IMG/VR virus record: IMGVR_UViG_2740892214_000006
DNA: 20,655 nucleotides
Origin: a virus
Lineage: Duplodnaviria > Heunggongvirae > Uroviricota > Caudoviricetes
Direction: 5' to 3' (one strand)
Each line of letters opens with the position of its first letter. Position 1 is the stretch's first letter. A program made the translations under genes and the position numbers. Under the pieces are notes generated by a model. That model saw only the letters and a program-made list of their open reading frames with translations, was not told the origin of the DNA and searched no databases. Positions 3,695 to 20,142 of the stretch are shown one piece after another.

Positions 3695-3704
3695 GGATGG
3701 AGCC

Positions 3705-4046
3705 ATGATTACTAAAAATTTCCGACTGAATGCGCTGGCAAATAAGTATGCGTCGGCACTGTATAACCACATTACCTCCACCAGCGGCGGGGACTATTTC
3801 ATGGTTGATGCGGACGGCGAGGCCGTACGTGTGGAAATCGTCAATGGAGTAAAAGGCGTTCGCAGCCTGATCGATAGCTACACACTGGCAGCCATGAAAG
3901 TGTTCTACCCGCAGTGGGAAACCGTGGGGATCGAGCTTCTTGAGCGTTGCGTCACTAAGGACGGATTGACTGACGTCGGGCGTGAGATATGGCAAAGCAT
4001 GGTTAATGACATGGGCGCAACTGTAGCGGGAGGTTCTCATGCGTGA
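3705..4046 (+). CDS. hypothetical protein (113 aa)
   Basis: SD GAGGATGGAG 5 nt before ATG 3705; starts 10 nt after upstream stop. Confidence 0.65.
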   Translation: MITKNFRLNALANKYASALYNHITSTSGGDYFMVDADGEAVRVEIVNGVKGVRSLIDSYTLAAMKVFYPQWETVGIELLERCVTKDGLTDVGREIWQSMVNDMGATVAGGSHA

Positions 4047-4410
4047 AAATGCAGAAATGGCGCTTAGCTCCGCAATCGGAGAGCAGGTGGCAAAGATTGC
4101 TGGTGCTGTGTGGATTCATAACCTTCATTCTACTGGTGAAGAGAAAATGGCAATTCAGACGCCAGAGGGACGCACCATTACTACATCTCTGAAGCCGTCA
4201 GATGTTTGTGATCTGATTTGCGCATTCATGTACCCAGCAATGAGGACTGTCCACGGCGATAAGTGGAAACTTGCGACAACCGCTGAATTTGATATGTGGC
4301 TAAACAATGATGGCATGCTGACTGATTACGGAATAACCAAGTGGCAGATGCTGGTTAGCCATATCGCAAACGCTATAGACCACGTGGGGTACGGTGATGC
4401 GAAACATTGA
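4039..4410 (+). CDS. hypothetical protein (123 aa)
   Basis: SD GGGAGG upstream of ATG 4039; overlaps upstream stop by 8 nt; stop overlaps primase start region. Confidence 0.65.
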   Translation: MRENAEMALSSAIGEQVAKIAGAVWIHNLHSTGEEKMAIQTPEGRTITTSLKPSDVCDLICAFMYPAMRTVHGDKWKLATTAEFDMWLNNDGMLTDYGITKWQMLVSHIANAIDHVGYGDAKH

Positions 4411-6748
4411 TCTTATCCGTCAGGTTATCAGTGCGTCTGAAAACAACTGGCCTCATGTGCTGGGCTGCCTGAACATAAATGTCCCTGACTCTCCGCGCCA
4501 TCATGCTCCCTGCCCTGCATGTGGGGGCAAAGATCGATTCCGGTTCGATGACAACGGGCGCGGTAGCTTCATCTGTAATCAGTGCGGCGCTGGTGATGGG
4601 CTGGATTTAATTAAACGCGTAAATAACTGCGACACAACAGAGGCGGCGCTTCTTGCCGCTGATGTTCTGGGTATTGATTACCGGACAACGGAAACACCAG
4701 AAGCCACCAGCCAGAAACGGGAACAACTGGAAACCGAGCGCCAGCGACGCGAACAGGAGCGCCTGAAAAGGGCAGAGAAGGATGAACAACAAAGACGGGA
4801 TACGTTTTCCCGTCAGTTTGATGACATGCGCAGAAAGGCTGTAAACGGCAAATCTGATTATCTGGTTGCGAAAGGGGTAGGTGATTTTACATTCCCCGTG
4901 TTGCCAGATGGATCTCTATTGCTGGCGCTGGTGGATAAATCCGGCGCAGTCACAGCAGCACAGACTATTACCTCACATGGTGAAAAAAGACTCCTGACAG
5001 GTTCGGCAAAGCGGGGGGCATATCACGCCATAAACGCACAGAAACGACCTCACAGCATCATAATTGCTGAGGGGGTGGCTACCGCCCTGTCGTGCCATTT
5101 AATTCGCCCTGACGCAATGACAGTGGCAGCAATCGACGCTGGCAACCTGTTGCCAGTAGCGGAAGTCATGCGCAGAACATATCCACAGGCACAAATCATC
5201 ATTGCCGCAGATAACGATCACCAGCAAGGAAACTCCGAAAGTGGAGGGATCAACACGGGGAAAGATGCCGCAGAGAGGGCCGCTATTTCCGTAGCTGGCT
5301 GGGTGTCTCTGCCACCGACTGACTATAAAGCCGACTGGAACGACTATCACCAACAACACGGGCTGGCGGCAGCCACAGCAGCATTTAAAGATTCGATGTA
5401 CCAGCCACGGGGGAAAGGGGCGCAGGTGAAAAATCACAAACAGTCAGTCGGGGCGCTGAATGAGATCAGTTCTGGCGAGGTGTTAAGCGATGATGAAATT
5501 GCTGTCCTCGAAGAAATCAACCGGACGTTTACGCATGTCACCATCGGCGGGAAACACAAGGTGGTGTCGCTAAAGCCTTCTCAAACCGGCGGTGTATCGC
5601 ACGTTTTCGAGGATTTATCACAATTTCAGCATTATTTTCATCATAAACCGAGAGTCGCCAGAAAGCTGGCGGGATCGGCGTGGCTGTCATGGAGTGGGAA
5701 GAACTACAAGCCAGGAGGCGTAGGATTTTATCCAGTACCAGACAAATGCCCTGACGATGTTTTTAATCTGTATGAGGGGCTGGCACTGGAACCAATTGAA
5801 GGAGATTGCACGGTATACCTTAATCACCTGTTGCAGGTTGTCTGTGCCGGTAATGAAGAGGCATACCAATATCTTATCCAGTGGATGGCGCACATTATCC
5901 AAAAGCCTGATGAAAAACCGTCCGTGGCAATCGTGATGAAATCTGTCCCGGGCACAGGGAAAGGCACAACGGTTAAACCACTGCTGCAAATACTGGGGCA
6001 GTACGCCGCCCACATTAACGGGGCGGGACATATTTCAGGGCGCTTCAATTCAATACTTGCTAACAAGCTACTGGTATTTGCTGACGAAGTGACGATCCAC
6101 AAGCCGTCTGAAGCTGACAGACTTAAAGCGATTATTAGCGAACCGACGTTTAACCTTGAGCGCAAGGGAATTGATGCTGAACCAATGCCGAATTTTGCCC
6201 GGTTGATATTTGCCAGTAACAGCACACAGGTATTACAGGCAGGGATAAGAGAGCGTCGCTATCTCGTGCTTGAGCCATCTCCTGAAAAAGCACAGAGCCG
6301 GGAGTATTTTGATCGGCTGTACAGTTGGCTTAATGATGGCGGTGCCGCAAAGTTGCTTTGGCATCTTAAAGGGGTGGATCTCTCAGGTTTTGACCCTCAA
6401 CGAGCGCCACAGACCGATGCCTTACGTGAAGAAATCTTGCTGGGGCTGTCTGGCGTTGAATTGTTTCTTTATGGCGAGCTAATCAATGAACCTCCGTTTA
6501 ATGGCGAAGTCCGTTTGTTTGCAAAGGATATGGTTAGTCGATTTGTAGCGTGGTCGCTTGAGCGTGGGGAAAAGCTTAAAGAACCAGCAGCCAGATCACT
6601 ACTGGGTAAATCACTTGCACAAATGGGGCTGGTGAAGCATGGAAGACCAGACCGAGGGAATGGCGTGTTCTACGAACTACCAGAGGTCGGAGTTCTACAG
6701 GCTGCGTTTGCCCGTCTGATCGGTATGGGGGGATATGATGTTTTTTAA
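4394..6748 (+). CDS. P4-alpha-type DNA primase / SF3 helicase (replication initiator)
   Basis: 784-aa ORF (GTG 4394 or ATG 4397). N-terminal zinc ribbon CPACGG...CNQCG, TOPRIM-like motifs IIIAEGVATAL and IIIAADNDH, C-terminal Walker A SVPGTGKGTT and Walker B LLVFADEV. Iteron clusters lie immediately downstream. Confidence 0.95.
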   Translation: MMRNIDLIRQVISASENNWPHVLGCLNINVPDSPRHHAPCPACGGKDRFRFDDNGRGSFICNQCGAGDGLDLIKRVNNCDTTEAALLAADVLGIDYRTTETPEATSQKREQLETERQRREQERLKRAEKDEQQRRDTFSRQFDDMRRKAVNGKSDYLVAKGVGDFTFPVLPDGSLLLALVDKSGAVTAAQTITSHGEKRLLTGSAKRGAYHAINAQKRPHSIIIAEGVATALSCHLIRPDAMTVAAIDAGNLLPVAEVMRRTYPQAQIIIAADNDHQQGNSESGGINTGKDAAERAAISVAGWVSLPPTDYKADWNDYHQQHGLAAATAAFKDSMYQPRGKGAQVKNHKQSVGALNEISSGEVLSDDEIAVLEEINRTFTHVTIGGKHKVVSLKPSQTGGVSHVFEDLSQFQHYFHHKPRVARKLAGSAWLSWSGKNYKPGGVGFYPVPDKCPDDVFNLYEGLALEPIEGDCTVYLNHLLQVVCAGNEEAYQYLIQWMAHIIQKPDEKPSVAIVMKSVPGTGKGTTVKPLLQILGQYAAHINGAGHISGRFNSILANKLLVFADEVTIHKPSEADRLKAIISEPTFNLERKGIDAEPMPNFARLIFASNSTQVLQAGIRERRYLVLEPSPEKAQSREYFDRLYSWLNDGGAAKLLWHLKGVDLSGFDPQRAPQTDALREEILLGLSGVELFLYGELINEPPFNGEVRLFAKDMVSRFVAWSLERGEKLKEPAARSLLGKSLAQMGLVKHGRPDRGNGVFYELPEVGVLQAAFARLIGMGGYDVF

Positions 6749-6778
6749 TATAGTCTTTTTACAAGAAGATCGTTTTTA

Positions 6779-6881
6779 CCTGTACCACCTATACCACTTT
6801 GCTAATTCAGCATTAAAAACAGTGCGTTATAGTGGTACAGGTCAATATCTTACCTATACCAGACCTGTACCACCTATACCA
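6779..6881. repeat. iteron cluster 1 (candidate origin / cis replication region)
   Basis: 18-bp direct repeat CCTGTACCACCTATACCA at 6779-6796 and 6864-6881, with an inverted core copy TGGTACAGG at 6832-6840; immediately 3' of the primase gene. Confidence 0.6.
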
Positions 6882-6924
6882 TTAACAAACGCATTTCTTC
6901 TGGCTGGCTGAGAGGGAACAACCA

Positions 6925-7155
6925 ATGATGAGCACACCATTTTACAAAGTGCGCCAGTTAGCTTCTTCCTCTGGCTGGCAGCTACGGTTTGAGGGGCGTT
7001 CAGACTGGCTACCCATTGCGGCATGGGCGAATGTTGAAATGTGTATTGACGGCGATACCGTTGAAATCATTATTCCCTGCGTGGCAAGTCGGGACGGCTG
7101 TATAGAGCCAACAGATATGGCAGCAGAAATCAGAGAGGTAAAACATGAACAATAA
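6925..7155 (+). CDS. hypothetical protein (76 aa)
   Basis: SD GAGGGAA upstream of ATG 6925 (second ATG at 6928); 11-nt overlap with the next gene. Confidence 0.5.
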   Translation: MMSTPFYKVRQLASSSGWQLRFEGRSDWLPIAAWANVEMCIDGDTVEIIIPCVASRDGCIEPTDMAAEIREVKHEQ

Positions 7156-7882
7156 CTATTGCATACCGCAGGGAATGACCAGAACGGAGCGCGAAGAATT
7201 AAAAAGTTTCGCTACACAGTGCGGGAATGCTGGCGACATCCAAAGTCTGGAACGCACTTTAATTATGATTGCGCACTGGATGCGCCAGGGGCAAAGAGTT
7301 TCATTTACTGAATATGCCAGCCAGTGGACAGAGGCACAGCGCGAACGGAGCGACGGTAATCACTCAACACCCGAAATGGCGAAGCAATGGCCTTTCAGTG
7401 GTAAACGCTGTATCAGTCCCGGTGGTTCAGATTATTACCCTGCTGGTGTGGGAGATGAGCCATGTTGTGACGAGACTGAAATCCGCCACGCAGTGACAGT
7501 AATTACCGCTGAATACCCACAATTTAACCTTGACGGACTGGCGCTCCACAACCGGAATGCGGACTGGGAAAACCCGCTTGATAACCCATCATTTATCGTA
7601 TCGGCGAAAAGCTGCCTGAAATGGATCAGAGATAACGGGATGAGTAATGCCCAGATTGAGAGCTTCCCGCAGGATAACCCCACATCTGACACGTTGAAGC
7701 ATGAAGTGGAGCGATATAACCAGATAAACCACCAGCACAGTGATCACCCGCACTATATCCCCAACGGAGCATTTATTGCGGCGATGGTGGCAAGCGGCTA
7801 CAAGGTTAAGCCAGCGGGAAGAATGAACGCATTTTTCAATATTTCAAAAAAGGGATTATGTGCTGCTATGGGTAAAAATTAA
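7145..7882 (+). CDS. hypothetical protein (245 aa)
   Basis: SD GAGAGG upstream of ATG 7145; protein-like composition; no family recognised; flanked by both iteron clusters. Confidence 0.65.
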   Translation: MNNNYCIPQGMTRTEREELKSFATQCGNAGDIQSLERTLIMIAHWMRQGQRVSFTEYASQWTEAQRERSDGNHSTPEMAKQWPFSGKRCISPGGSDYYPAGVGDEPCCDETEIRHAVTVITAEYPQFNLDGLALHNRNADWENPLDNPSFIVSAKSCLKWIRDNGMSNAQIESFPQDNPTSDTLKHEVERYNQINHQHSDHPHYIPNGAFIAAMVASGYKVKPAGRMNAFFNISKKGLCAAMGKN

Positions 7883-7887
7883 ATAAA

Positions 7888-7991
7888 TGGTACAGGTCTG
7901 TACAGGTGGGGAGAGGTCATTTTTACCCACCTGTACCACCTGCAGGCCGCGCCACACAAGGGTTTGTGACATGGTGGTACAGGTGGTACAG
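7888..7991. repeat. iteron cluster 2 (candidate origin / cis replication region)
   Basis: Core copies in both orientations: TGGTACAGGT 7888-7897, CTGTACAGGTGG 7898-7909, CACCTGTACCACCTG 7928-7942, GGTGGTACAGGTGGTACAG 7973-7991; shares CCTGTACCACCT with cluster 1. Confidence 0.6.
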
Positions 7992-8356
7992 CAAAAACAG
8001 CGATTTTCTTTATAAGGTATGTTTTGCTCATCTGGCAGACGGAGGTATTCGCTGCGGTTTGGCACGTAGCCCAGAACAGCAAAGAGTTTTACGAGACTTT
8101 TGTAAAATCCAGTGTACAAGGGCGTGACGTTTTTGAAGGAGAGACCTACGAAATTTTCGTAGTTCAAAAAATAGCCTCTGAGATGTTGTTATGCCTGTTC
8201 AGCAAACCATCCGCATAGCTGATCGCGAATCAAATTACCAATGGAGCCAGAAGCAAGGGCAGAACTGGAAAGCGCCTGCCGTGAAGAGTAATGCGACATC
8301 ATAAATATAGTTTTTAGAGTCCATAAAAAACCTGTCAAAACCTGACATACAGAACG

Positions 8357-8390
8357 ATGCCACCAGCTACTGAGCGGTGGCATTTTTTTG
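8357..8390 (+). terminator. rho-independent terminator
   Basis: 8-bp stem ATGCCACC / GGTGGCAT (8357-8364, 8376-8383) with 11-nt loop, followed by a 7-T run (8383-8389). Confidence 0.6.
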
Positions 8391-8419
8391 TGCTATTTGT
8401 TTCATATTTTGCAATCACA

Positions 8420-8455
8420 ATGATGAATGTTGCGTTTTATGAAACTATAATGACT
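8420..8455 (+). promoter_or_regulatory. candidate promoter for the RHH-led operon
   Basis: Perfect TATAAT at 8446-8451 about 35 nt upstream of ATG 8485 in an AT-rich stretch after the terminator; the -35 element is poor. Confidence 0.3.
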
Positions 8456-8484
8456 GTTGTTTTATACAGTTCTAAGGGGGCGTT

Positions 8485-8646
8485 ATGGCTATTTCAGTAA
8501 AGCCGGTATTGATAAGTGAGAAGCAAATGGAAGCGATAAAGAAAATTCAGGAAGAGCAGCGTAAAAAATCAGGAATTGGAGTAGCGCCAACTCTGCATGA
8601 AATTGCACGAGGGTTAATAGATAAGGCGCTGGCAGGCTGTATGTGA
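8485..8646 (+). CDS. ribbon-helix-helix (Arc/MetJ/CopG-like) small DNA-binding protein (53 aa)
   Basis: Below the ORF-track size cutoff. SD AAGGGGG 5 nt before ATG 8485, in-frame stop at 8473-8475. Predicted beta-strand then two helices (VKPVLISEKQMEAIKKIQEEQRK..KSGIG..VAPTLHEIARGLIDKAL). Confidence 0.6.
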   Translation: MAISVKPVLISEKQMEAIKKIQEEQRKKSGIGVAPTLHEIARGLIDKALAGCM

Positions 8647-8662
8647 AAATGGATGGCATCGC

Positions 8663-9124
8663 ATGGAACTAAAATTTATTGATAACCCTGTGCGATTACA
8701 GGCCTTTCTTAACGAGCCAGGCAATACCGAAAATATTGTTGAGCCGGGGCACACGTACTACATCAAGCCTGATGCGGTATATCTCGGCATCTACGAAGGA
8801 TTAGTGCTGGCTGGCGTTCATGAAGTGCGTAACTTCTGGCATAGCGTTGTTGAATGCCATGCGGTGTACGACCCCGGATTCCGTGGTGAATATGCACTGC
8901 AAGGACATCGATTATTCTGCAAATGGCTTCTCGAAAACTCACCATTCCTTAACAGCATCACTATGGTTCCTGACACCACGAAATACGGACGGGCAATTAT
9001 CCGTTTGCTTGGCGCTACCCGTGTTGGTCACCTTGATGATGCTTATATCAGATGTGGTAAACCCGTCGGCGTAACGCTTTATCAGTTAACTCGGCAACAA
9101 TATAAGGAATTCAGCGAATGTTAA
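8663..9124 (+). CDS. hypothetical protein (153 aa); positional analogue of P22 gp14
   Basis: First gene of a coupled four-gene chain; stop overlaps the next start (ATGTTAA). Function inferred only from position. Confidence 0.7.
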   Translation: MELKFIDNPVRLQAFLNEPGNTENIVEPGHTYYIKPDAVYLGIYEGLVLAGVHEVRNFWHSVVECHAVYDPGFRGEYALQGHRLFCKWLLENSPFLNSITMVPDTTKYGRAIIRLLGATRVGHLDDAYIRCGKPVGVTLYQLTRQQYKEFSEC

Positions 9125-9795
9125 TTACCCATATAGCTCATAAACATCTCAATCGTGCCGTATACGAAAAAGGCGGTGATGGTGGTGCCTCTAAAGCTCA
9201 GGCGAAGGCCCAGCAGCAGGCAATTGATTTGCAGCGCGAGCAGTGGAATACGGTGATGAATAATCTCAAGCCGTATGCAGAAGTCGGATTGCCTGCTTTA
9301 CAACAACTGCAAGGACTGATGACTCTGGAAGGGCAGAATAAAGCCGCGAATGATTTCTTTGGTTCTGGTTTATATAAAACACAGGCAGATCAGGCCCGTT
9401 ATCAGAACCTTGTCTCAGCAGAAGCTACCGGGGGGCTTGGCTCAACAGCTACCAGTAACCAGTTATCTTCCATTGCGCCCATGCTTTATAACAATTGGCT
9501 CAGTGGGCAAATGCAAAATTATGGAAACCTGCTAAATGTCGGGATGAATGCGGCATCAGGGCAGGCAACAGCAGGGCAAAACTACGCCAATAATACCGGG
9601 CAACTCTTGCAGGGGCTTGGCGCTATTCGTGCAGGTCAGGCGCAGCAGCCATCCAGTCTTGCGCGTGGTATTGGTGGGGCGGCATCAGGCGCTTTAGCGG
9701 GTGCGCAACTTGGTTCCGTTGTTCCGGGTATAGGTAATGTCGCCGGGGCTATTGGTGGTGGGCTTATTGGTCTTGTTGGGGGGCTTGGATTCTAA
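9118..9795 (+). CDS. putative virion internal/ejection protein (P22 gp7-like by size, order and composition)
   Basis: 225 aa, with Q/N/G/A-rich low-complexity and a Gly-rich hydrophobic C-terminus (GIGGAASGALAGAQLGSVVPGIGNVAGAIGGGLIGLVGGLGF). SD AAGGA upstream; TAATG overlap with the next gene. Confidence 0.75.
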   Translation: MLITHIAHKHLNRAVYEKGGDGGASKAQAKAQQQAIDLQREQWNTVMNNLKPYAEVGLPALQQLQGLMTLEGQNKAANDFFGSGLYKTQADQARYQNLVSAEATGGLGSTATSNQLSSIAPMLYNNWLSGQMQNYGNLLNVGMNAASGQATAGQNYANNTGQLLQGLGAIRAGQAQQPSSLARGIGGAASGALAGAQLGSVVPGIGNVAGAIGGGLIGLVGGLGF

Positions 9796-11093
9796 TGGCG
9801 ACATGGCAACTTGGCGGGCTGCCTAGCATGGCACCGCAAAATGATAATGCTCCTCGTTCTTCCGTTCTTCAGCCTGTGCAGTATCAGCAGCAGCCAAACG
9901 TAGGTTTAATGGCGCTACAGGGGCTAAGAGGCGTTGCTGAGATTAATCAGCAGGCACGTCAACAACAGCGTAAAGCAGAGTTTCAGAAAGCATATGCCGG
10001 GGCTTTTGAGTCTGGAGACAGAAACAAAATGCGCAGTCTTATTTCTGAGTATCCAGAAGAATTTGAAAGCGTTCAGAAAGGGATGGGCTTTATTGATGAC
10101 GACCAGAGAAATTCTATTGGTCATCTTGCGACTAGTGCTCAAATCGCATCTTCGCTCGGAACTGGGGCATTTGGAAAATTCATAGCAGATAACGAAGATG
10201 AAATGCGTCGCTTGGGAATTTCTCCTGAGTCTGTTGCCGAAATGCATGTTAATGATCCACAGGGATTCCAGCGGCTTGCTGGTAGTATGGCACTGTTTTC
10301 TCTCGGTCATGAGAAGTATTTCGATATCAAAGATCAAATGGAAGGTCGTCGACTTGAGCAAGGGCGACTGGATGAAAGTATGCGTCAGGCTGACATGGAG
10401 AACGCGAGAGGATGGGCAAATATCCAGAACGCTCAACTAGACAGGGCTCAGCGAGCACAAATTCACTCAGATGAGATGGGATTGAAGCTAATGGAGCTGG
10501 GGCAAAAAGGTAAGCCGTCAGCAGACTTAATTAAGGGATTAAATTCTGACATTACCAATTTTGGCAAAAATTATAACTCTGTCAGAGCGGCGGCAAACTC
10601 TCTGCAAGCCCTTAGCAAGGTAAATACTGGCGCTGCCCAACTTGGGATTATCTTCAACTACATGAAATCTCTTGACCCGCAGTCAGTCGTTCGTGAAGGC
10701 GAACAGGTTCAGGTAATGCGGTCTGATGGCATATGGGGACAAATCAAAGGATACATAGACCAGCTTAATGCTGGAAACGGCCTGTCGCAGGAGGCAAAGG
10801 ATAACATTGTTAACGCCGCAAAAATCAACGCCAATGCTATGGGGCAGCAGTTTAACCAGCAGGTTGACGAGTATCTCGATACATATGGAGAAACTATTCC
10901 TCAGGGGCTAAGAAAAAGCCTTGAAAGAAGGAAAGCGAAGCTATTTGACGATGTTTCCGGGCAGCCTACATCACAGGCTGGCACTGGACAGGCAAAAGCG
11001 GCAACCGGAGGAATATCAGAAGGCGCAACGGCAACCAACCCTAAAACTGGTCAGAAAATCATTTACAGGAACGGAAAATGGCAGCAAATGTAA
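9795..11093 (+). CDS. putative virion internal/ejection protein (P22 gp20-like by size, order and composition)
   Basis: 432 aa, Q-rich N-terminus, coupled to flanking genes by overlapping start/stop; composition typical of podovirus ejection proteins. Confidence 0.8.
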   Translation: MATWQLGGLPSMAPQNDNAPRSSVLQPVQYQQQPNVGLMALQGLRGVAEINQQARQQQRKAEFQKAYAGAFESGDRNKMRSLISEYPEEFESVQKGMGFIDDDQRNSIGHLATSAQIASSLGTGAFGKFIADNEDEMRRLGISPESVAEMHVNDPQGFQRLAGSMALFSLGHEKYFDIKDQMEGRRLEQGRLDESMRQADMENARGWANIQNAQLDRAQRAQIHSDEMGLKLMELGQKGKPSADLIKGLNSDITNFGKNYNSVRAAANSLQALSKVNTGAAQLGIIFNYMKSLDPQSVVREGEQVQVMRSDGIWGQIKGYIDQLNAGNGLSQEAKDNIVNAAKINANAMGQQFNQQVDEYLDTYGETIPQGLRKSLERRKAKLFDDVSGQPTSQAGTGQAKAATGGISEGATATNPKTGQKIIYRNGKWQQM

Positions 11094-13195
11094 TCTTACC
11101 GGAAGGTTTTGTGCTCGATGAACAACCTGATAACTCACAGTTTCCTGATAGTTCACAGCTTCCTGATGGTTTTGTGCTTGATGCCCAACCAGAACAGCAG
11201 CAATCACCTTTGGTTTCACCAGAGGAAAATTCCAGACAGGAAAATGTTGTTAATAATGCTAACGGTTTCGACCGTTTTATGTATGGCGTTCTCAGTGGAT
11301 TGATGGATGTTGGTAAAGGTGTTGGCCTGTTTCAGGATATGACACCAGAAGAGCAAGCCGCAATTCAGTCTCTACAGCAGAAGTTAGCGGCAAAACCATC
11401 AACCGCACAAGATGTTGGTGAGTTCGTTGGACAAGCAGCGCCATTTGTTAGTGGTGGTGGGATTATTTCTCAGGTTCCCAAAGGGGCGGCAAGACTGGCT
11501 GCCGCCGCAGGGCTTGGTGCTGGAGAAGGGGCTATTGTAGCCAATGGAACAAATAGCGATGTTGCTTCCGGCGCTGCTATTGGCGCTGTGGCTGGCCCTG
11601 TAGCCGAACTTGCTGGCCCTGCAATTAATAAAATAGCTGGGAAATTAACCAAGAAGAATGTTTCTTCGATTCCAGATATTGAGGGGATTACTCCTGCCGA
11701 AGAGAAAATTCGTAAGTTATCTGCACAAGGCAACCCAAATCTTGCCTCTTCGCTTGAAGGGCTAGATCTAAAACCTCAGAAAGAAATTGTTGAGGCTGCA
11801 AATAGGCTTCATGTTGATTCAGTTCTTCCTTCTCATTTATCAGGAAATGAGCAATACCAAGCTGTAGAGCAAGCCCTAAAGTCACGGACAGGATCAGCGT
11901 TAAAAGCTCAAGAAGATAAAGCAATAAGCGAATTAGCCTCTAGTGCTGGCAAGATAATCGATGATGTTGCTGGTGCGCCAGATGCGTTAGCTATGAGCGA
12001 AAAATATATTTATCAGATAAATAGTAGAATGGAAGCACTAAAAAACCGTAGTGATCAGTTATATAAACGTGTTGATTCCGCTCTATCACCAAGAACAAAA
12101 GTCGAAGCAAATAACACAAGCACTATGCTGGAAAAAATCGCTGATGATTTAGGAGGGTGGGATAATCTTGACCCAATAGAAAAGCGAGTTTTTACAGCAA
12201 TAAACCCCGGCCCAGATAGCATCCTAACGTATGCAAATTTAAACAGGCAAAGGCGTTTAGTTGGTGATGCCCTAAATAAAAAGCAGGGGCCATACAAAGA
12301 TGCTGATAAAGAAGCGCTATCAAGACTATATGGAGCTTTAGCTGAAGACCAAAAATCTGTCTTATCCAATACTGGATACTTGCGAGATTTCGAAGTCGCA
12401 CAACGCCTTGTAGCTATGAGAAAAAACTTAGAAAGGCAAATGGTAAATCTTCGCGGGAAAACACTTAATGGGGATATAGCGTATAAAGTAACGAATTCTC
12501 TTCAATCTATGGCAAAAGGTGATGCGAGAGGGTTTCGTGAGATTATGCAAAATACTCCATCAAGAACATTGCGAAGGGAGCTAGTAGGAACAGCATTAAG
12601 AGATATACTTTCCTCTGGGAAGCGTGGGGCCGACTTTAATCCATCTGGCTTTGCAGATTGGTGGCAAAACTTGCAACACAGTGGACAGCTAAAGACTTTG
12701 GCTGAACATTTGCCAAAAGAAACAATGAGCGGACTATATGATGTATACAAAGTTGCCAGAGCAATAAAAAATGCTAAAGCGCATGAAATATCTACTGGTA
12801 AGCTGAATGAGTTTGTAAACAGATTTAATCGGGTAACAGCTCCATACGAACTAGCAGCAAAACACATTCAAAAAATAGGCACGATGGTAGGCGCTCATTT
12901 TGGATCGCTTGGAGCCATTGCTGGGGCTGATATTGGAGCAAGATTGGCGAGTAAAGCTCGATTAGCTGGTGGAGCAGGGGCGGCTGATGCTGCGGATAAA
13001 TTAATTGCCTCGCCAGCCTTCCAGAGCGCAGTAAAAAATCTACACGGAAAAGCGCCTGGGCACATTGTTGATTCACGTATCAGGCGCTCCCCTCAATGGA
13101 AGAGTTTTTTTAACTCTCTTCCTGAACAGGAAAAACGGACCATCGCCAGACTGGGCATCATTACTTGGCTATCTAATGATCCAGATAATGACTAG
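11078..13195 (+). CDS. putative virion internal/ejection protein (P22 gp16-like by size, order and composition)
   Basis: 705 aa; SD AGGAACGG upstream, start overlaps previous gene by 16 nt. N-terminal tandem repeat LPEGFVLDEQP / LPDGFVLDAQP; Gly/Ala-rich blocks flank a lower-GC central part. Confidence 0.8.
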   Translation: MAANVILPEGFVLDEQPDNSQFPDSSQLPDGFVLDAQPEQQQSPLVSPEENSRQENVVNNANGFDRFMYGVLSGLMDVGKGVGLFQDMTPEEQAAIQSLQQKLAAKPSTAQDVGEFVGQAAPFVSGGGIISQVPKGAARLAAAAGLGAGEGAIVANGTNSDVASGAAIGAVAGPVAELAGPAINKIAGKLTKKNVSSIPDIEGITPAEEKIRKLSAQGNPNLASSLEGLDLKPQKEIVEAANRLHVDSVLPSHLSGNEQYQAVEQALKSRTGSALKAQEDKAISELASSAGKIIDDVAGAPDALAMSEKYIYQINSRMEALKNRSDQLYKRVDSALSPRTKVEANNTSTMLEKIADDLGGWDNLDPIEKRVFTAINPGPDSILTYANLNRQRRLVGDALNKKQGPYKDADKEALSRLYGALAEDQKSVLSNTGYLRDFEVAQRLVAMRKNLERQMVNLRGKTLNGDIAYKVTNSLQSMAKGDARGFREIMQNTPSRTLRRELVGTALRDILSSGKRGADFNPSGFADWWQNLQHSGQLKTLAEHLPKETMSGLYDVYKVARAIKNAKAHEISTGKLNEFVNRFNRVTAPYELAAKHIQKIGTMVGAHFGSLGAIAGADIGARLASKARLAGGAGAADAADKLIASPAFQSAVKNLHGKAPGHIVDSRIRRSPQWKSFFNSLPEQEKRTIARLGIITWLSNDPDND

Positions 13196-13214
13196 TGAAT
13201 GGCCACGGATGGCC

Positions 13215-13640
13215 TCAATCTTTATTCTTTGAAATAGAGTCATTGATCTTTTCGAAACACCAATGAAATCCACAAAAGAGAGCTACACCAATATAACAAT
13301 ACAAAACTATCAACCACCTTTCAGTGTCCGAAGGGTAAAAAACATCAATTACATAAGCAACACCAATTGGTATTAATGCTAGTAATAACATCGACACAGG
13401 ACGTACAAACTTCTGAACTATATCAATTTTATAGAACCACAAGGCGGTATGTTTAATGATATAAGTAAAGATGGCTGCGCCAATAATGGCAAAAAACACC
13501 ATCGATAAAGTCGGGTATAACTTTGCGACAATTAAACCCAACAAAATAATTATAACTGCCTGCCCCCTCACACCAACCCTCCCTTTAGCTTTGTTTAGAA
13601 TGGCAATCATCATATATCCAAGACATGGCATTTGGTACAT
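13215..13640 (-). CDS. small integral membrane protein (4 predicted TM helices); candidate superinfection-exclusion protein
   Basis: 141-aa ORF convergent with the ejection-protein operon; four hydrophobic segments; markedly AT-rich (moron-like); occupies the position of sieA in P22-type genomes. Weak RBS, start uncertain. Confidence 0.6.
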   Translation of the reverse strand: MYQMPCLGYMMIAILNKAKGRVGVRGQAVIIILLGLIVAKLYPTLSMVFFAIIGAAIFTYIIKHTALWFYKIDIVQKFVRPVSMLLLALIPIGVAYVIDVFYPSDTERWLIVLYCYIGVALFCGFHWCFEKINDSISKNKD

Positions 13641-13764
13641 AGCTTGGGTCGGGATTTCAAATCCGCTCCCAGTTGATGGGGCCGTTACAGTACGCGCATA
13701 TCCGCTTTATGTGAAACAGGAAGATTTTTCTGATATCACTGCCACAGCAAAACACCAATTTCGA

Positions 13765-13780
13765 GACAAGTACGCGCGCG
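13765..13780. repeat. GACAAGTACGCGCGCG motif, copy 1
   Basis: Exact 16-mer shared with copies at 14050 and 15333; alternating CG palindromic core. Confidence 0.6.
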
Positions 13781-13788
13781 AGGGGTAT

Positions 13789-13812
13789 CAGTTGCAAAAA
13801 GTTTTGCAACTG
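13789..13812. promoter_or_regulatory. operator-like perfect palindrome CAGTTGCAAAA-AG-TTTTGCAACTG
   Basis: 11-bp inverted arms with a 2-nt spacer, in the 450-bp intergenic region upstream of the membrane-protein gene. Confidence 0.4.
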
Positions 13813-14049
13813 CGTCCGACCAGTACGCACACAATGGAGGGAAGTACCATAAAACTGTTCTCTACATAAGACAGAGTGGTGGTGATGTGTTGATTATCGG
13901 CGTATATGCGCACAGGACGCGCTATGACAATGTTTTATGCGGGTACACCAATCACATGTATCTGATGTGATAAATCGCGTTACATGACATCTCTGTTGTG
14001 CTGGTGGTTATCACGACTTTCTGAATCTGGCCTTTGCCTGATATTTTGC

Positions 14050-14065
14050 GACAAGTACGCGCGCG
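14050..14065. repeat. GACAAGTACGCGCGCG motif, copy 2
   Basis: Exact 16-mer; extended palindrome TACGCGCGCGTA; lies about 30 nt beyond the 3' end of the small - strand gene. Confidence 0.6.
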
Positions 14066-14093
14066 TAGCATCGACAGCATACACATTGGATAT

Positions 14094-14315
14094 TCATTTT
14101 GTGACCAATGCGATAAGTAGCGGGATAAGAATTGATAAAATCAACAGGCCGATGATCCACTTTTGATTTTCACTGGCCTTATCTCTATTTTCATCAATCT
14201 TATCAATAATTCGACGCTCCAAGCCGTGCATATCACCGCGAATGGCAATCATCTCATTGCGAACATCCGAGAAGTGGTTGGCTTGATGTTCAATGTGTGG
14301 CGTTCTGCCTTTCAT
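14094..14315 (-). CDS. small tail-anchored membrane protein (73 aa)
   Basis: Hydrophilic charged N-terminal 50 aa followed by one C-terminal TM helix (WIIGLLILSILIPLLIALV); AGGA upstream of ATG. Confidence 0.5.
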   Translation of the reverse strand: MKGRTPHIEHQANHFSDVRNEMIAIRGDMHGLERRIIDKIDENRDKASENQKWIIGLLILSILIPLLIALVTK

Positions 14316-14394
14316 TCCTGATCCTCACCTATCGTCACCACCTGCTGGTGTATAAAGGTATTGGCCCAAGCAGCTTTCCAATGGGCACTCATGT

Positions 14395-14850
14395 TTATAC
14401 GCTGACCTTACAATCAATCACCGCTTTTAACTTTTCAGCATTGCTTCCCTGACGCTTCCACGCGCTGTAAATATCTTTATCCCACGCTTTACCAGCTTTT
14501 GTTTGATAGCCTGCTTCATTGATCCGTTCAGCTATCACACGCCCATTATCAAATCCCTGTTGGATGGTATCGGCAATGATCTTTATAACTGCCGTTTCGT
14601 TATATGGTTTTGGTGGGATGTTCGGCTTTCCGGCAATAAGCGACGCAGCGGCTTTTTCCATGCGCTCCACCAGCCCAAGCATTCGTGAATCAATAGACTT
14701 TTCCGGCTGCCCCAGCTTCATGCGAATCGCATCAACAAGCCAGGAGGTTTTATCTCCTCCAGAAGCGAGAACAGACCGATTAAACTCATCCTGCAATTCA
14801 GATGGGATGCGGAACGCGATCAGATTAGATTTGCTCATTGCAAAGACCAT
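14395..14850 (-). CDS. RHH-domain (Arc/Mnt-like) repressor-like protein with C-terminal extension (151 aa)
   Basis: N-terminus has an RHH signature (beta-strand LIAFRIPSEL followed by helices); divergent from the PerC-like gene across an operator-like region. Start could be ATG 14850 or 14838. Confidence 0.65.
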   Translation of the reverse strand: MVFAMSKSNLIAFRIPSELQDEFNRSVLASGGDKTSWLVDAIRMKLGQPEKSIDSRMLGLVERMEKAAASLIAGKPNIPPKPYNETAVIKIIADTIQQGFDNGRVIAERINEAGYQTKAGKAWDKDIYSAWKRQGSNAEKLKAVIDCKVSV

Positions 14851-14867
14851 ATCAGTGAGTAATATCC

Positions 14868-14899
14868 ATACAGTATACCACTGTATAACACTGTTATAC
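14868..14899. promoter_or_regulatory. operator-like repeats in a divergent promoter region
   Basis: Inverted repeat ATACAGT (14868-14874) / ACTGTAT (14880-14886), followed by direct repeats ACTGTATAAC / ACTGTTATAC (14880-14899), between divergent genes. Confidence 0.4.
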
Positions 14900-15002
14900 G
14901 CTCAAATATCAGCCAGAAAATAACGGACCAATCACAAAGCTATCGCTGTGTTGTTGGTTCAGAGCTGGGCTGTGTTGGTTCAAAATAATCTGAGAGGCAG
15001 AA

Positions 15003-15284
15003 ATGATAAGGGACAGGAAAGCTGAAGAGCTGGAGTCAAAAGGGCTATACCGGAGAGCTGCCGCACGATGGATGGAAGTCATGCTGTTATGCACCGAGGA
15101 CGATGATCGGGAATGGATAAAGCGCCGCCGTGAAACGTGTCTGGAGAACGTGAAGCGCCCGCCCGTGAAGGTTGAGGACTTTGGCGACCTGCATAAAGCT
15201 GTTACCGAAACGCAACACCGCATGGGGATAGCGCAACCGAACGGTAACGCCTTCCGGTTAAATGGCGGCAAGAGGCAAAGGTAG
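15003..15284 (+). CDS. PerC-family-like transcriptional regulator (93 aa)
   Basis: SD GAGAGG 5 nt before ATG 15003. Motif EELESKGLYRRAAARWMEVM...DREWIKRRRETCL matches my recollection of the PerC/Pch family signature. Confidence 0.65.
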   Translation: MIRDRKAEELESKGLYRRAAARWMEVMLLCTEDDDREWIKRRRETCLENVKRPPVKVEDFGDLHKAVTETQHRMGIAQPNGNAFRLNGGKRQR

Positions 15285-15288
15285 ACCA

Positions 15289-15310
15289 CCAGAGGGAAAT
15301 CATCCTCTGG
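15289..15310 (+). terminator. possible weak terminator hairpin
   Basis: 7-bp stem CCAGAGG / CCTCTGG with 8-nt loop, 5 nt after the PerC-like stop; the downstream T-tract is poor. Confidence 0.3.
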
Positions 15311-15332
15311 CTGGCGGTTTCTGGTATTTCGG

Positions 15333-15350
15333 GACAAGTACGCGCGCGCG
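15333..15350. repeat. GACAAGTACGCGCGCG(CG) motif, copy 3
   Basis: Same motif with one extra CG, giving the palindrome TACGCGCGCGCGTA; about 50 nt after the PerC-like stop. Confidence 0.6.
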
Positions 15351-15581
15351 TAGCACCCAATCGGTGAGGAAATAGCGGCGACCTGAATGGTCAAAATCAC
15401 AACGCAGCTATCCCCGTAAGCAGCGCTTAACGGAATAGCAGTAACCTGAATCCAGTGGGGAGGGGGTAGTCAAATCTCTACAGCCCTGACTATCCGGGAC
15501 TGCCCGCCCCATCGTTTTTTTATACCCGCGAAAAATGAAATTTAATCCGGGCGTGTTTCATCCTTCCAGAGGGTATGACGT

Positions 15582-15767
15582 ATGACACCACGCGAAATAG
15601 CCTTATTGACCATCGCCAAACTTGAGCACGGAGGCCACCAGCTTACACAGGCAGATCAACGGGAGATAGAACGATCAGTTAATGCCGATATAGCCCGGCG
15701 CGACAGGTTCCGCGAAATGATGCGAGCACCTGCCTACCAGTGGAAGAAGCCAGCGCCGCGCAGGTAG
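15582..15767 (+). CDS. small hypothetical protein (61 aa)
   Basis: ATG 15582 with AGAGGG about 9 nt upstream; charged and Arg-rich; no family recognised; could be spurious. Confidence 0.35.
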   Translation: MTPREIALLTIAKLEHGGHQLTQADQREIERSVNADIARRDRFREMMRAPAYQWKKPAPRR

Positions 15768-15887
15768 ATATGGGATTATTCCACATGTAACTTATGCGTA
15801 TTAAGCAAATTTCCTTTATTCACCTTTACAGAATTGTGAGTACGTCAGTATCGTTATCCTTCCGATTCGCATTTATTCAGGATTTGC

Positions 15888-16430
15888 ATGTACCAGCTAA
15901 AGATAACCATCCGAGACAGCAAACCACCTATATGGCGGCGTGTGCTGGTTCCAGAGCAAATCCCCTTTAGTAAACTTCATGCCGTGATCCAGTTAGCTTT
16001 TGGCTGGAATGACGAACACCTGTATATGTTCGAGAAAGGGCGTAAAGGTGATCCAGGTAGCGAGTATCGCGTATGGGGTGAGGATGAAAGCATGGGTAAC
16101 GCGGCAATCACGCCACTATGGGCGGCGCTCCAGAATGAGGGTGACAAGCTGGTTTACACGTATGACTTTGGCGACTGGTGGGATTGCGTCATTGTGCTGG
16201 AGAAGCAAACACACGATACGAGTAATCAGCCCATTAGCTGCCTGCGTGGGAAAGGCACCACCCCGGCGGAAAACTCAGGCGGCTTGCATGGTTACAATGA
16301 ATTGCTATTACAGGCCAGAGAGTCTGATAATCCTGAGCAGGCCGAGATCCACAATTTCCTGATGCTGGATATTGAACGCCGGGTTTACGACCTGAGCCGC
16401 ATCAACGACAGATTGCAGGCTATTTACTGA
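15888..16430 (+). CDS. plasmid pRiA4b ORF-3-like (PRiA4_ORF3) domain protein (180 aa)
   Basis: N-terminal YQLKITIRDSKPPIWRRVLVP...LH.VIQ.AFGW..EHLYMF matches the PRiA4_ORF3 signature as recalled; AGGA 5 nt before ATG. Confidence 0.8.
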   Translation: MYQLKITIRDSKPPIWRRVLVPEQIPFSKLHAVIQLAFGWNDEHLYMFEKGRKGDPGSEYRVWGEDESMGNAAITPLWAALQNEGDKLVYTYDFGDWWDCVIVLEKQTHDTSNQPISCLRGKGTTPAENSGGLHGYNELLLQARESDNPEQAEIHNFLMLDIERRVYDLSRINDRLQAIY

Positions 16431-16782
16431 CCCGCATGTATTCACCTGATATTGCGTTGTCAGCGCCGCCAGTATCGCGCATAACAGCGCACTGACCGGG
16501 TAAACCGTAGCGCACGACCGTTGCGTTAGTATCACCGCCGCGCCGTATCTGGCGCGATTCATACACTGTCACCCGCTCAAGCAGTCCACCAGCAACCATG
16601 CTTTCCAGTGTGCGCCGGGTTGATTCGAGCTGGTGACGCTTATCGAACGACACCATGCCATGAAGCAGGTAGGCCACACCCGACACATCGAACGGCGGCG
16701 CACCAATCTCACCAGTCACCCATTCGAGGTTATCCGGTTCAAAGTAGCTAAGTATCTCTTTTTTGCGACTGGTCATTCTCAT
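16420..16782 (-). CDS. hypothetical protein (120 aa)
   Basis: Protein-like ORF convergent with the PRiA4_ORF3-like gene (3' ends overlap by 11 nt); AAGGA about 10 nt upstream of ATG 16782. Confidence 0.6.
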   Translation of the reverse strand: MRMTSRKKEILSYFEPDNLEWVTGEIGAPPFDVSGVAYLLHGMVSFDKRHQLESTRRTLESMVAGGLLERVTVYESRQIRRGGDTNATVVRYGLPGQCAVMRDTGGADNAISGEYMRVSK

Positions 16783-17013
16783 GGCTGGCTGATTCCTTAT
16801 TGTGGGATAGCACTATCATACAATAAGTGGGTTAAAGGGAGAGCGTTACCGCCTGATATGCTGTATGAATAACAACCAAATTTCAGGGGCGGAAAAAGAT
16901 ATGGGGGTACTTTTGGGGGTATCTATAAAAAATGAACAATAAAAAAGGCAACAAAAACAAAGATTATCGCCTATGTGTATTGTTCCTATTATCGCACCAT
17001 TTAAATCAATAAG
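16783..17013. other. attP-like region with core resembling a tRNA-Thr 3' end
   Basis: AT-rich 230-bp non-coding region just 3' of int. 16983-16999 TTCCTATTATCGCACCA resembles the 3' end of thrW as recalled (CTCCTATTATCGGCACCA) with a 1-nt gap. No 5' tRNA portion upstream. Confidence 0.45.
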
Positions 17014-18177
17014 TTACACATCATTAGTACCTTCCTTATTTTTTGACTGGGACAAATTTGGGACCGATGGGTTCAGGATCGAGTCTATTTGCCGTGCGTG
17101 TTCGGTAAGGTGATTAGGTGCAAGGTGAGCATATCGACGAACCATTTCGATAGACTCCCAGCCTCCCATTTCCTGTAACACTGACAACGGGACTCCGGCT
17201 TGAACCAGCCAACTTGCCCAGGTGTGTCTCAAGTCGTGAAATCTGAAATCATCAATACCAGCCCGTCTCAGCGCCGCTTTCCAGGCTGTGTTTGCGTCAT
17301 ACCGCATCTTCCTTACTGTTGGCGCTTTCGTTCCGTCTGGTTTGGTACAGCTTTCCTTGTACACAAATACCCAACGGTGATGATTCCCGATTTGTTTTTT
17401 CAATACGCGACATGCAGTATCATTCAGCGCAACGCCAATTGCGCGGTTTGATTTACTCTCTTCCGGGTTTATCCATGCCACCCGGCGCTGCATATCTATT
17501 TGTTGCCATTCAAGGTTGATGATGTTCGAGCGTCTTAAGCCTGTTGCCAGTGCAAATTCAACAACAGACTTTAATGGCTCCGGACATTCATCAATCAGCC
17601 TTTGTGCTTCATGGGGCTCCAGCCAGCGGATCCGTTTATTCTTTGGTTGAGGCACTTTAATAATTGGTGCCTTATCCAGCATTTTCCATTCACGCTCTGC
17701 GGCTCTTAGTAGGGCCTTTATAAATGAAAGATGCGTAGCCTTCGTTGCAACGGACGCCGGTTTTGGCGTGTATTCTGGAACAGGTTTCCCTTTTTTTCTG
17801 CATGCTTCTGCCCTGAGTTTCCAGTTTTCCTCATGACGCCGGTTCGTCATTTTCTGCATTGCTGAATAAATTTTTGATTCAGTAATGTCTCTTAGTTGCA
17901 TTCCTGCGAAATGTTGAAGCCAGAATCCGATCCGGCTTTTGTCATCGTCCAGTGATTTTTTATGTGCTTTCTCTTCAAGCCACCTGACACACGCTTCCTC
18001 GAACGTTATATCAGGTATTTCACCAAGTTTGCTGACCCGCCATGCTTCAGCCTTTAGCTTGTCATGGAGTTCTGTCGCCTGCCTTTTGTCCTTTGTTCCA
18101 AGAGACTGTTTAAATCTTTTACCGTTCGGCAATGTGAAACTGGCGTACCATATTTCACCTCTGCGGAAGAGTGACAT
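17014..18177 (-). CDS. int: tyrosine integrase, P22-type
   Basis: 387 aa; N-terminus [28 protein letters not shown] matches my recollection of P22 Int; catalytic motifs [10 protein letters not shown] and RRYAHL; strong SD GAGGAAAG upstream. Confidence 0.95.
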
Positions 18178-18404
18178 TTTCTTTCCTCTGTTATGCCATC
18201 ACCCGCGCTCACCTGGACAGTATGCAGCGGAGACTGAAGAGCCGCAATGCAGGCTTGTCGTGTTGTGAGGTAAGGAGATTTATTCTTAGTGGGATCTTTG
18301 CGTGTTGCCTGAAGACGCCCTGTGCGTATCCAGTTAATGGCAGTCGGTCTGGATATCTTGAGAAAATGACAGGCCTCATCGAGTGTGAGGCTGTATGGCT
18401 CCAT
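18054..18404 (-). CDS. xis: excisionase, P22-type
   Basis: 116 aa from ATG 18404 (the ORF-track start 18488 is upstream); SD GAGGTGA before ATG; [33 protein letters not shown] is excisionase-like; 3' end overlaps the int start by 124 nt. Confidence 0.85.
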
Positions 18405-19598: not shown

Positions 19599-19639
19599 TT
19601 TGTTCTCCACGTATATGCGCTGCACCGCGCTGAATTCGG

Positions 19640-20140: not shown

Positions 20141-20142
20141 AA

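Follow-up and report, generated by a model that had tools for sequence, protein, structure and literature searches.

Organization of the locus

The 20,655-nt stretch of viral DNA analyzed here (IMG/VR record IMGVR_UViG_2740892214_000006; hereafter the window) carries, at positions 8485 to 13195, a 53-residue leader protein gene followed by homologs of genes 14, 7, 20, and 16 of the short-tailed phage P22. This cassette occurs in an island resembling EcCIMP1, a 19,963-bp phage-inducible chromosomal island (PICI) of Escherichia coli MP1 whose helper is the P22-like phage vB_EcoP_Kapi1, or Kapi1 (Pick, Stadel & Raivio, ISME J 2025, PMC11773190). All five open reading frames (ORFs) were intact, and the same five coding sequences are annotated in RefSeq at the 99.2%-identical locus of E. 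coli MS15236. A preliminary description of the locus, made from the sequence, had read it as an operon headed by a ribbon-helix-helix (RHH) regulator and had left two options: an autonomously regulated ejection cassette, or a different system built from similar proteins. The first was essentially right, as the operon has its own terminator, promoter, and leader; the second was not supported. The features of the operon were as follows:

8357–8390, plus strand: intrinsic terminator, ending the upstream, primase-side transcription unit and insulating the cassette; also picked by a consensus scan
8400–8415, plus strand: operator-like quasi-palindrome 1, TTTCATATTTTGCAAT, with its center ~50 bp upstream from the predicted start of transcription
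8423–8451, plus strand: predicted sigma-70-type promoter, read from the sequence, with a weak −35 element (ATGAAT, 8423–8428), a 17-nt spacer, and a −10 element (TATAAT, 8446–8451)
8429–8444, minus strand: operator-like quasi-palindrome 2, TTTCATAAAACGCAAC, occupying the whole −35/−10 spacer
8485–8646, plus strand: leader gene, 53 aa, a satellite-backbone gene predicted to encode a probable small DNA-binding regulator; strong Shine-Dalgarno sequence AAGGGGG at 8474–8480
8663–9124, plus strand: P22 gene 14 homolog, 153 aa (DUF2824, "head morphogenesis" or ejection-protein assembly factor); Pfam PF11039, 1.5e-61; phrog_651, 1e-66
9118–9795, plus strand: gp7-type ejection protein, 225 aa; Pfam PF25688 P22_gp7, 1.9e-72; phrog_598
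9795–11093, plus strand: gp20-type ejection protein, 432 aa, mosaic; Pfam PF16928 Inj_translocase, 5.5e-48; phrog_917, 8.5e-102
11078–13195, plus strand: ejection ("DNA transfer") protein at the gp16 position, 705 aa; mosaic, its gene being low in GC at the center; phrog_6704, 1.2e-174; phrog_770, 5.6e-51

The genes had been described as linked by overlapping start and stop codons. This was correct for the three junctions within the ejection block, which overlap by 7, 1, and 16 nt, respectively. By contrast, the leader and the gp14 gene are separated by a gap of 16 nt.

The four ejection proteins

The likeness to P22 proteins proposed for the block (a gp14-sized protein, then three resembling gp7, gp20, and gp16) proved to be true homology for all four. 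The P22 proteins themselves fall into PHROG families 651, 598, 917, and 770, the same four as the window proteins (P22 gp16 matched phrog_770 at 2.3e-266). The gene order, 14-7-20-16, and the coupled junctions are as in P22 and Kapi1. On this sequence evidence, the four genes were shown to be orthologs of P22 genes 14, 7, 20, and 16, and would thus encode an assembly factor and three proteins that leave the capsid to form a conduit across the envelope.

The direct comparison with P22 was less uniform at the level of single sequences. All four proteins share their PHROG family with their P22 counterpart, but the 705-aa protein had no pairwise match to P22 gp16 (BLASTP E = 0.51) and matched no Pfam family, P22_gp16 (PF26808) included. 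The gp16 types of P22-like phages are only 22–26% identical to each other (Leavitt et al. 2024). The missing pairwise similarity is therefore expected, as the gp16 position is hypervariable. Searching by sequence for solved structures of gp14, gp7, gp20, and gp16 returned none, and a single-sequence AlphaFold model of the satellite gp14 had a mean predicted local distance difference test score (pLDDT) of 40.

The last three proteins had also been described as rich in Gly, Ala, Gln, and Asn. Indeed, these residues make up 49.8%, 37.3%, and 32.5% of the three sequences, respectively, versus 25.9% in the other ORFs of the window.

The block shares with that of P22 (Lederbergvirus) the four families, their order, and their tight coupling; in both, the last gene is followed by a convergent gene for a membrane protein. 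However, the P22 genes lie within the late operon, directly after the tail-needle gene 26, and have neither a promoter nor a leader gene of their own. By contrast, the window cassette is a stand-alone unit in an element lacking head and tail genes. Accordingly, two further statements of the preliminary description were upheld: the small leading gene is foreign to the canonical P22 late operon, having no counterpart in the P22 map, and no tail-accessory genes adjoin the block, which lies apart from every head or tail cluster.

Mosaicism of gp20 and the 705-aa protein

The four proteins differ in their relationship to those of EcCIMP1 and Kapi1. The satellite gp14 was 98% identical to that of EcCIMP1 and 84% identical to that of Kapi1; its dN/dS relative to the satellite at locus L028 of the survey described below was 0.049, with dS saturated. 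The satellite gp7 was 99.6% identical to that of EcCIMP1 and 57% identical to that of Kapi1, the best phage match in the collection being approximately 70%. For gp20, the best phage match was 66%, and the identities changed along the sequence. Its first 50 residues were 98% identical to those of EcCIMP1 gp20 and the remainder 8–38%. Relative to Kapi1, the N-terminal 200 residues were 24–44% identical; in the C-terminal ~230 residues, identity was 92–100% over the first ~200 and 76% in the final block.

The 705-aa protein was similarly composite. Residues 1–150 were 78–100% identical to the Kapi1 protein and the remainder 14–48%, while residues 204–701 matched the C-terminal portion of the final ejection protein in Sf101/APC_JM3.2 at 62.5% identity. 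The GC content was 0.38–0.41 over positions 11751–12750 versus 0.46–0.48 in the flanks. These data support a recombination joint at approximately nt 11,530–11,690, placed just before the GC drop because the Kapi1-like N-terminal part there gives way to the Sf101-like remainder. Recombination inside this gene, which had been suggested from the low-GC segment, was thus supported. In P22, gp16 and gp20 have to match each other, and gp7 is interchangeable (Leavitt et al. 2024). The co-inherited segment comprising the C-terminal part of gp20 and the N-terminal part of gp16 fits these matched-pair genetics.

A recent capture of the block from the helper was rejected: the gp20 and gp16 of EcCIMP1 are ~25% identical to those of Kapi1, and the best phage match to the window gp7 does not exceed the value given above.

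The control region

The terminator and the TATAAT box had been noted in the preliminary description, and both were borne out. The hairpin at 8357–8390 had a predicted folding energy of −24.1 kcal/mol (z = −4.9; none of 200 shuffled sequences was as stable) and is followed by seven U residues. A GC-rich hairpin with a T-run occurred at the same relative position in five surveyed loci (L008, L013, L016, L018, and L020). The −10 element, at 8446–8451, was supported by its conservation across genera. A consensus promoter scan missed the promoter at 8423–8451 because its −35 element is weak.

To compare control regions, we aligned the 200 nt upstream of the leader from 16 loci representing more than 10 genera. 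The motif TTTCAT-N4-TGCAAT, which forms the two 16-bp quasi-palindromes, was kept in 14 of the 16, in different genera. The TATAAT box, an ACTGTAT..A motif downstream of it, and the Shine-Dalgarno sequence were conserved in all but two atypical loci, and the hairpin with its T-run was present in many of the aligned regions. This cross-genus conservation of the −10 element, the Shine-Dalgarno sequence, and the palindromes is far stronger evidence for the predicted promoter than a match in one sequence. Within the window, a search with the quasi-palindrome motif yielded 4 matches versus 0.74 expected, two of them exact or near-exact copies flanking the promoter. As quasi-palindrome 2 overlaps the promoter core, repression is suggested. 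An Rfam scan of positions 7883–8484 detected no match; the C4 and isrK RNAs further upstream were the sole Rfam matches.

The leader protein

The 53-aa leader was 100% identical to its EcCIMP1 homolog and belongs to a tight family confined to Enterobacterales. Its dN/dS between satellites was 0.025–0.05, with dS saturated.

The RHH identity given to the leader in the preliminary description was left undemonstrated. The protein had no match in Pfam, PHROG, or, using phmmer, the PDB, scanning all 14 members of its family against Pfam at relaxed settings was also negative, and aligning the family with an Arc/Mnt alignment using hhalign gave a probability of 1%. The AlphaFold model (pLDDT 86) comprised an extended segment, residues 1–11, and two helices, residues 12–28 and 37–52. 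This modeled topology is plausibly compatible with an RHH monomer, in which case dimerization would be needed for the strand to form. The top Foldseek match of the model was the RHH DNA-binding domain of PutA, but the match was not significant (E = 0.79, TM-score 0.54–0.60).

Our best inference is nevertheless that the leader is a small DNA-binding regulator, possibly of the RHH type. The main basis for this is that the protein and the palindromes at its own promoter are conserved together, not the evidence on its fold. The P22 immI region (Pant-arc-ant) has a similar layout: its first gene encodes the 53-aa RHH autorepressor Arc, an operator-like palindrome lies between the −35 and −10 elements of its own promoter, and the downstream genes are probably harmful when over-expressed. 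The analogy is one of layout only, as the leader resembles neither Arc nor Mnt in sequence or profile comparisons and its DNA binding is a prediction.

The satellite island

By gene content and synteny, the cassette is in an EcCIMP1-like PICI, a phage satellite, integrated at tRNA-Thr (thrW), and not in a prophage. The corresponding island of MS15236 (98.7–99.2% identical) comprises, in order, tRNA-Thr, int, genes for DUF6387 and helix-turn-helix (HTH) proteins, AntA, DUF4222, Ash, small ORFs, the primase-helicase, two ORFs, the 53-aa gene, and the cassette; beyond it are cargo genes (PerC and others) and the adjoining vat island. The same island genes were seen in the window, the integrase gene and tRNA-Thr lying just to its left, as known from the MS15236 locus. 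An HTH/AlpA gene was present upstream in L002 (MS15236), L003, and L005, with AlpA lying outside the window. Two features within the window define the element further:

4394–6748, plus strand: satellite primase-helicase, 784 aa; Pfam Zn_Ribbon_Prim, Toprim_3, and DUF5906; synteny as in EcCIMP1
16984–16993, plus strand: attR core, TCCTATTATC, marking the satellite's right end; an exact match to the EcCIMP1 att core, with 1 occurrence versus 0.06 expected

No capsid, portal, terminase, tail, or lysis gene was found among the larger ORFs scanned in positions 1–16993 of the window or in the RefSeq annotation of the MS15236 island. A complete P22-like prophage was therefore rejected. The head and tail genes are missing near the cassette because the element is a satellite, and positions 8357–13195 are taken to be the sole virion-protein operon of the island.

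The island occupies the same site as EcCIMP1 (tRNA-Thr between proA and yagU), with the same att core and the same backbone order: AntA, Ash, small ORFs, primase, 53-aa gene, gp14, gp7, gp20, and gp16. The two differ in the primase (DUF927 and 918 aa in EcCIMP1; DUF5906 and 784 aa in the window), in gp20 after residue 50, and in the last gene, which in EcCIMP1 encodes 906 residues with an SLT domain and in the window 705 residues without one (23% identity). EcCIMP1 excises only with Kapi1 and depends on alpA and int genes of its own; the frequency of its transduction is low (PMC11773190). The main text of the MP1 transcriptome paper contains no gene-level data on the cassette.

The leader region was present in ~500 of 5,426 complete E. 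coli genomes (~9%). The commonest E. coli variant retains gp20 and gp16 without gp14 and gp7. Many satellites keep this pair alone, as expected if gp16 and gp20 must match whereas gp7 is interchangeable.

The cassette might instead be inert, left over from a P22-like prophage that decayed beside the island or recombined into it. The region was earlier called a defective prophage, and the mosaic joints with Kapi1- and Sf101-like phages would suit such an origin. However, every ORF is intact, and strong purifying selection was evident between satellite copies. Moreover, the same architecture recurs in the ~9% of complete E. coli genomes noted above, the dedicated promoter and leader are conserved, dozens of satellites from other genera have analogous modules, and EcCIMP1 is experimentally mobile. 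We regard this explanation as extremely improbable.

Several further features of the island were observed. Within the ORF at 1406–2434, annotated as an Ash family protein, Rfam detected isrK (1787–1863, 63 bits) and a C4 antisense RNA (1888–1975, 80 bits); the Pfam Phage_ASH match (residues 124–219, nt 1775–2062) overlaps both. EcCIMP1 has an Icd-like gene at this position. As both RNAs lie within the "Ash" ORF, the satellite may use P1/P4-style antisense-RNA immunity beside the AntA antirepressor, and the ORF may be partly an RNA locus. In the ~470-bp non-coding region at 7883–8356, especially 7888–7990, GGTACAGGT(GG) is repeated in direct and inverted orientation, including 14-nt perfect inverted arms at 7927–7940 and 7973–7986; these repeats are a candidate replication origin, or iterons, of the satellite. 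Finally, within 16984–20655, the attR core is directly followed by a prophage of the SfIV/SfII/SfV type, inserted in tandem at thrW and represented by its int-xis-early-left region (98.6% identity to SfIV). Its genes include an integrase (17014–18177, minus strand) and DUF551 and HD-domain genes.

Delivery modules behind the leader in related satellites

The survey comprised 73 loci, namely the window and 72 related loci obtained from representative genomes and IMG/VR scans together with two context look-ups. The loci represent many Enterobacterales genera and are not all independent. In nearly all 73, the leader lay in the same backbone (AntA, Ash, and a DUF5906 or DUF927 primase), with virion proteins directly after it on the same strand. 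In at least 62 of the 73 loci, the leader was followed by P22-type ejection proteins (E-proteins), T7-like internal virion proteins, a tape measure protein (TMP), or a TMP with a baseplate hub; in four more, it was followed by a baseplate-hub-like protein. The modules following the leader were distributed as follows:

gp14-gp7-gp20-gp16: 13 loci
gp20-gp16 only: 7 loci
T7-like internal virion proteins (PF24072 T7_gp14-like, an SLT-containing protein of ~840–900 aa, phrog_3003/342, and phrog_684): 15 loci
108-aa protein and a full-length siphovirus TMP (PF20155): 10 loci
584–608-aa TMP/transglycosylase-like protein: 6 loci
TMP (phrog_2276), tail proteins, and baseplate hub (phrog_196): 11 loci
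Baseplate-hub-like protein: 4 loci

The closest phage relatives of the T7-like class were podoviruses such as Pseudomonas phage Ab31 and Pelagibacter podophages. The siphovirus TMPs of the satellites were 59% identical to that of Erwinia phage Midgardsormr38 and 49% to that of ES18. As to whether the 108-aa TMP partner is a tail assembly chaperone (TAC), there was no Pfam match and a PDB profile search was uninformative. The common denominator of the modules is that they encode proteins that exit the virion to cross the recipient envelope.

Two loci, L014 and L064, were exceptions in that the leader-like domain forms the C-terminal part of a longer ORF (89–95 aa), without the conserved promoter. 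In L064 (9881–17757), the fused ORF heads a complete myovirus-like cluster encoding major head, neck, sheath, tube, chaperone, and tape measure proteins. The ORF of L064 and L014 may be a phage ancestor of the leader, or L064 may be a capsid-forming satellite.

Two side observations concern the content of the modules. In some sister satellites, the same operon ends with a TerS-like HTH protein gene (phrog_57, 1.5e-10), located at 12095–12649 in L005 and ~5.1 kb past the leader in L059 and L062; no counterpart was found in the window. In L019, the 832-aa protein encoded at 12716–15214 is of the internal-virion-protein class and weakly matched a DarB-like antirestriction family (phrog_10089, 6e-8). 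This match hints that co-injected satellite proteins might also have anti-defense functions.

The survey is relevant to the possibility that the genes past the primase redirect helper packaging or capsid assembly to satellite DNA. The cassette sits where characterized PICIs have packaging genes, the PHROG names and the P22 RefSeq record label gp14 and gp16 as "head morphogenesis," and the TerS-like gene ends the same operon in some sisters. P22 mutants lacking gp7, gp16, or gp20 form DNA-filled particles that fail at injection, which counts against such a role, as does the part of the P22 homologs in building the injection conduit. No homolog of a terminase, a pac-recognition protein, or a capsid-size determinant was detected in 8485–13195 using Pfam and PHROG, and the equivalent slot elsewhere holds TMPs and baseplate hubs, which have no packaging role. 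We thus consider a packaging or capsid-morphogenesis module very unlikely. For EcCIMP1, the cassette genes were described as "similar to DNA transfer/DUF2824 proteins," a role in packaging was suggested, and structural genes were said to be absent (PMC11773190).

A broader interpretation of the survey is possible, and we place it a little short of even odds: a lineage of Enterobacterales satellites would carry a swappable "DNA-injection conduit" module containing essentially the only virion genes of the element, always behind the same leader and control region, with its content set by the morphotype of the helper. The window would then represent the short-tailed-phage version, giving rise to a chimeric virion. 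The conduit would plausibly be replaced to pass SieA-type exclusion or to meet host-factor needs at entry.

Proposed role of the cassette

In our assessment, the best explanation, with a probability of roughly 60%, is that the cassette is an insulated ejection operon, expressed from its own promoter, of an EcCIMP1-like satellite, whose products are loaded into helper-built virions for DNA entry. The leader would act as a small dimeric DNA-binding regulator (possibly RHH, in an Arc/Pant-like arrangement) on the two palindromes, autoregulating the operon and limiting the output of membrane-active ejection proteins. When a P22-like helper, that is, a Lederbergvirus of the Kapi1 type, is induced, the satellite gp7, gp20, and gp16 would be loaded into helper procapsids with the assistance of gp14. 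The transducing particles would be chimeric and would deliver their DNA through a satellite-specified conduit. Very divergent E-proteins do assemble into P22 virions and function there (Leavitt et al. 2024).

The nearest functional precedent, by analogy, is the TAC-TMP-BhuB tail module of the Vibrio cholerae PLEs (elements resembling phage-inducible chromosomal islands; Mathur, Boyd et al., Nature 2026, PMC12987554), which likewise are helper-pirating satellites with DNA-delivery core proteins of their own. The PLE TMP and hub (BhuB) are found in PLE virions in place of those of the helper, yielding chimeric tails (Mathur et al. 2026, PMC12987554). Deleting the PLE tmp lowers transduction by 96–99.9%, and the benefit of the substitution is unknown; predicted tmp genes were noted in other satellites as well (Mathur et al. 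2026, PMC12987554). The resemblance extends to the sisters of the window satellite that hold TMP or TMP and baseplate-hub modules at the position of the cassette. However, the PLEs form a satellite family of unrelated origin, whose helper, ICP1, is a lytic myovirus, and have no short-tailed-phage ejection proteins. Moreover, a conserved leader gene or promoter has not been reported for them. Incorporation and requirement were demonstrated for the PLE proteins, whereas the window cassette is known here from its genes.

The PLEs also bear on a different role for the leader, as a protein-level factor rather than a transcription factor: an adaptor favoring the satellite conduit proteins, or an inhibitor of their helper counterparts similar to Rta. 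PLE TMPs are incorporated selectively by an unknown mechanism, and PLE11 encodes Rta, an 80-aa inhibitor of the helper TMP. The leader is always first in its module and matches no DNA-binding family. Nevertheless, such a role is quite unlikely: Rta is unlinked to the PLE tail cluster, the leader co-occurs with conserved palindromes at its own promoter, and it is 58–100% conserved although the proteins encoded downstream come from unrelated podovirus, siphovirus, and myovirus families. As these proteins are unrelated, a common protein partner for the leader is not to be expected.

In the proposed ejection-operon model, the least certain step is the benefit, which would arise at DNA entry. A matched gp20/gp16 pair of its own may let satellite DNA into recipients that exclude the helper, including lysogens, or may confer independence of host factors. 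SieA blocks DNA entry, generalized transduction included, and escape from it maps to the C-termini of gp16 and gp20 (Leavitt et al. 2024). Satellite DNA could thus enter helper-blocking recipients because gp20 and gp16 are the parts targeted by SieA-type exclusion.

Exclusion systems are also of interest because of the gene that follows the cassette:

13215–13640, minus strand: convergent membrane protein, 141 aa, with four predicted transmembrane segments; at the position of sieA after gene 16 in P22, its membership in the module being uncertain

Its position and polytopic topology match those of SieA. However, the protein lacks the FxRYPxEAxxFNK motif, gave a BLASTP E of 2.1 with SieA, and had no PHROG match; it was rejected as SieA on motif and similarity. 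The gene convergent with the last ejection gene varies among satellites: besides the 141-aa form of the window, there is a 139-aa form (L023, 5463–5882) that shares only the first ~25 residues, and a 204-aa form at the sieA position in L024 (10982–11596), L025, and L034. The sequence RYPGEA occurs in the L024 and L025 copies, and the L024 copy weakly matched phrog_7745, "SieA-like" (4.4e-4). sieA has been reported only in P22-like prophages (Leavitt et al. 2024); a satellite carrying a sieA-like gene would be a first.

The membrane protein at the sieA position is among the points that could favor an interference or exclusion module, in which the ejection proteins serve not satellite transfer but to harm the helper or incoming phages, either as mismatched gp16/gp20 in virions or by blocking the envelope. 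Immunity to superinfection by Kapi1 is increased by EcCIMP1, on which no known defense system was found. A PADLOC search of ten other ORFs of the window, including the leader, was likewise blank for known defense systems. Mismatched gp16/gp20 make P22 particles non-infectious, and the identity of these two proteins between EcCIMP1 and Kapi1 is, as noted, ~25%. However, Kapi1 titers after induction are unaffected by EcCIMP1, poisoned virions would equally disable the particles carrying satellite DNA, and the region encoding AntA and the C4 RNA is an equally good candidate for the source of EcCIMP1 immunity. An interference function is therefore unlikely.

Several observations weigh against the ejection-operon interpretation or parts of it. 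Sequence searches lend no support to the assignment of the leader as an RHH protein or a regulator, and the 705-aa protein resembles P22 gp16 at the profile level only. The prophage adjoining the island would not be a P22-like helper, as SfIV-type phages are, we presume, myoviruses. Transduction of EcCIMP1 is very inefficient, at ~5e3 particles per ml, and the role of the cassette was left undefined by the authors (PMC11773190). A Kapi1-like prophage was present in only 2 of 21 EcCIMP1-carrying strains (PMC11773190), so the cassette often occurs without an obvious helper. Finally, the E-protein sets of Sf6, L, and CUS-3 did not escape SieA and that of HK620 did so only partly (Leavitt et al. 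2024). As most foreign E-protein sets fail against SieA, allele swapping is no general bypass of exclusion.

Implications

Satellites pirate the capsids of their helpers and redirect packaging. The satellite type described here is already published and the protein families are established. What appears to be new is, first, a complete and separately controlled ejection-protein operon in a satellite of short-tailed phages and, second, the pattern in which, across a large lineage of satellites, one conserved leader precedes conduit modules that are interchangeable. Our search of the literature for satellites with ejection or internal virion proteins yielded nothing beyond EcCIMP1, and according to a December 2025 preprint, TMPs were unknown in satellites except for PLE11.

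As the satellite in the window brings a complete set of ejection proteins, the chimeric-tail logic of the Vibrio PLEs is suggested to extend to short-tailed helpers. For one large lineage of satellites, the survey further suggests the general rule that the backbone is constant and the DNA-delivery module is swapped to suit the helper. If this is true, DNA entry, with its exclusion systems and host factors, would be a main barrier to satellite spread, and EcCIMP1 and Kapi1 would provide a tractable E. coli system for addressing why satellites replace conduit proteins, a question left open by the PLE study. It would also correct the annotation of islands that are present in ~9% of complete E. 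coli genomes, often beside virulence islands such as vat, and that have been described as lacking structural genes.

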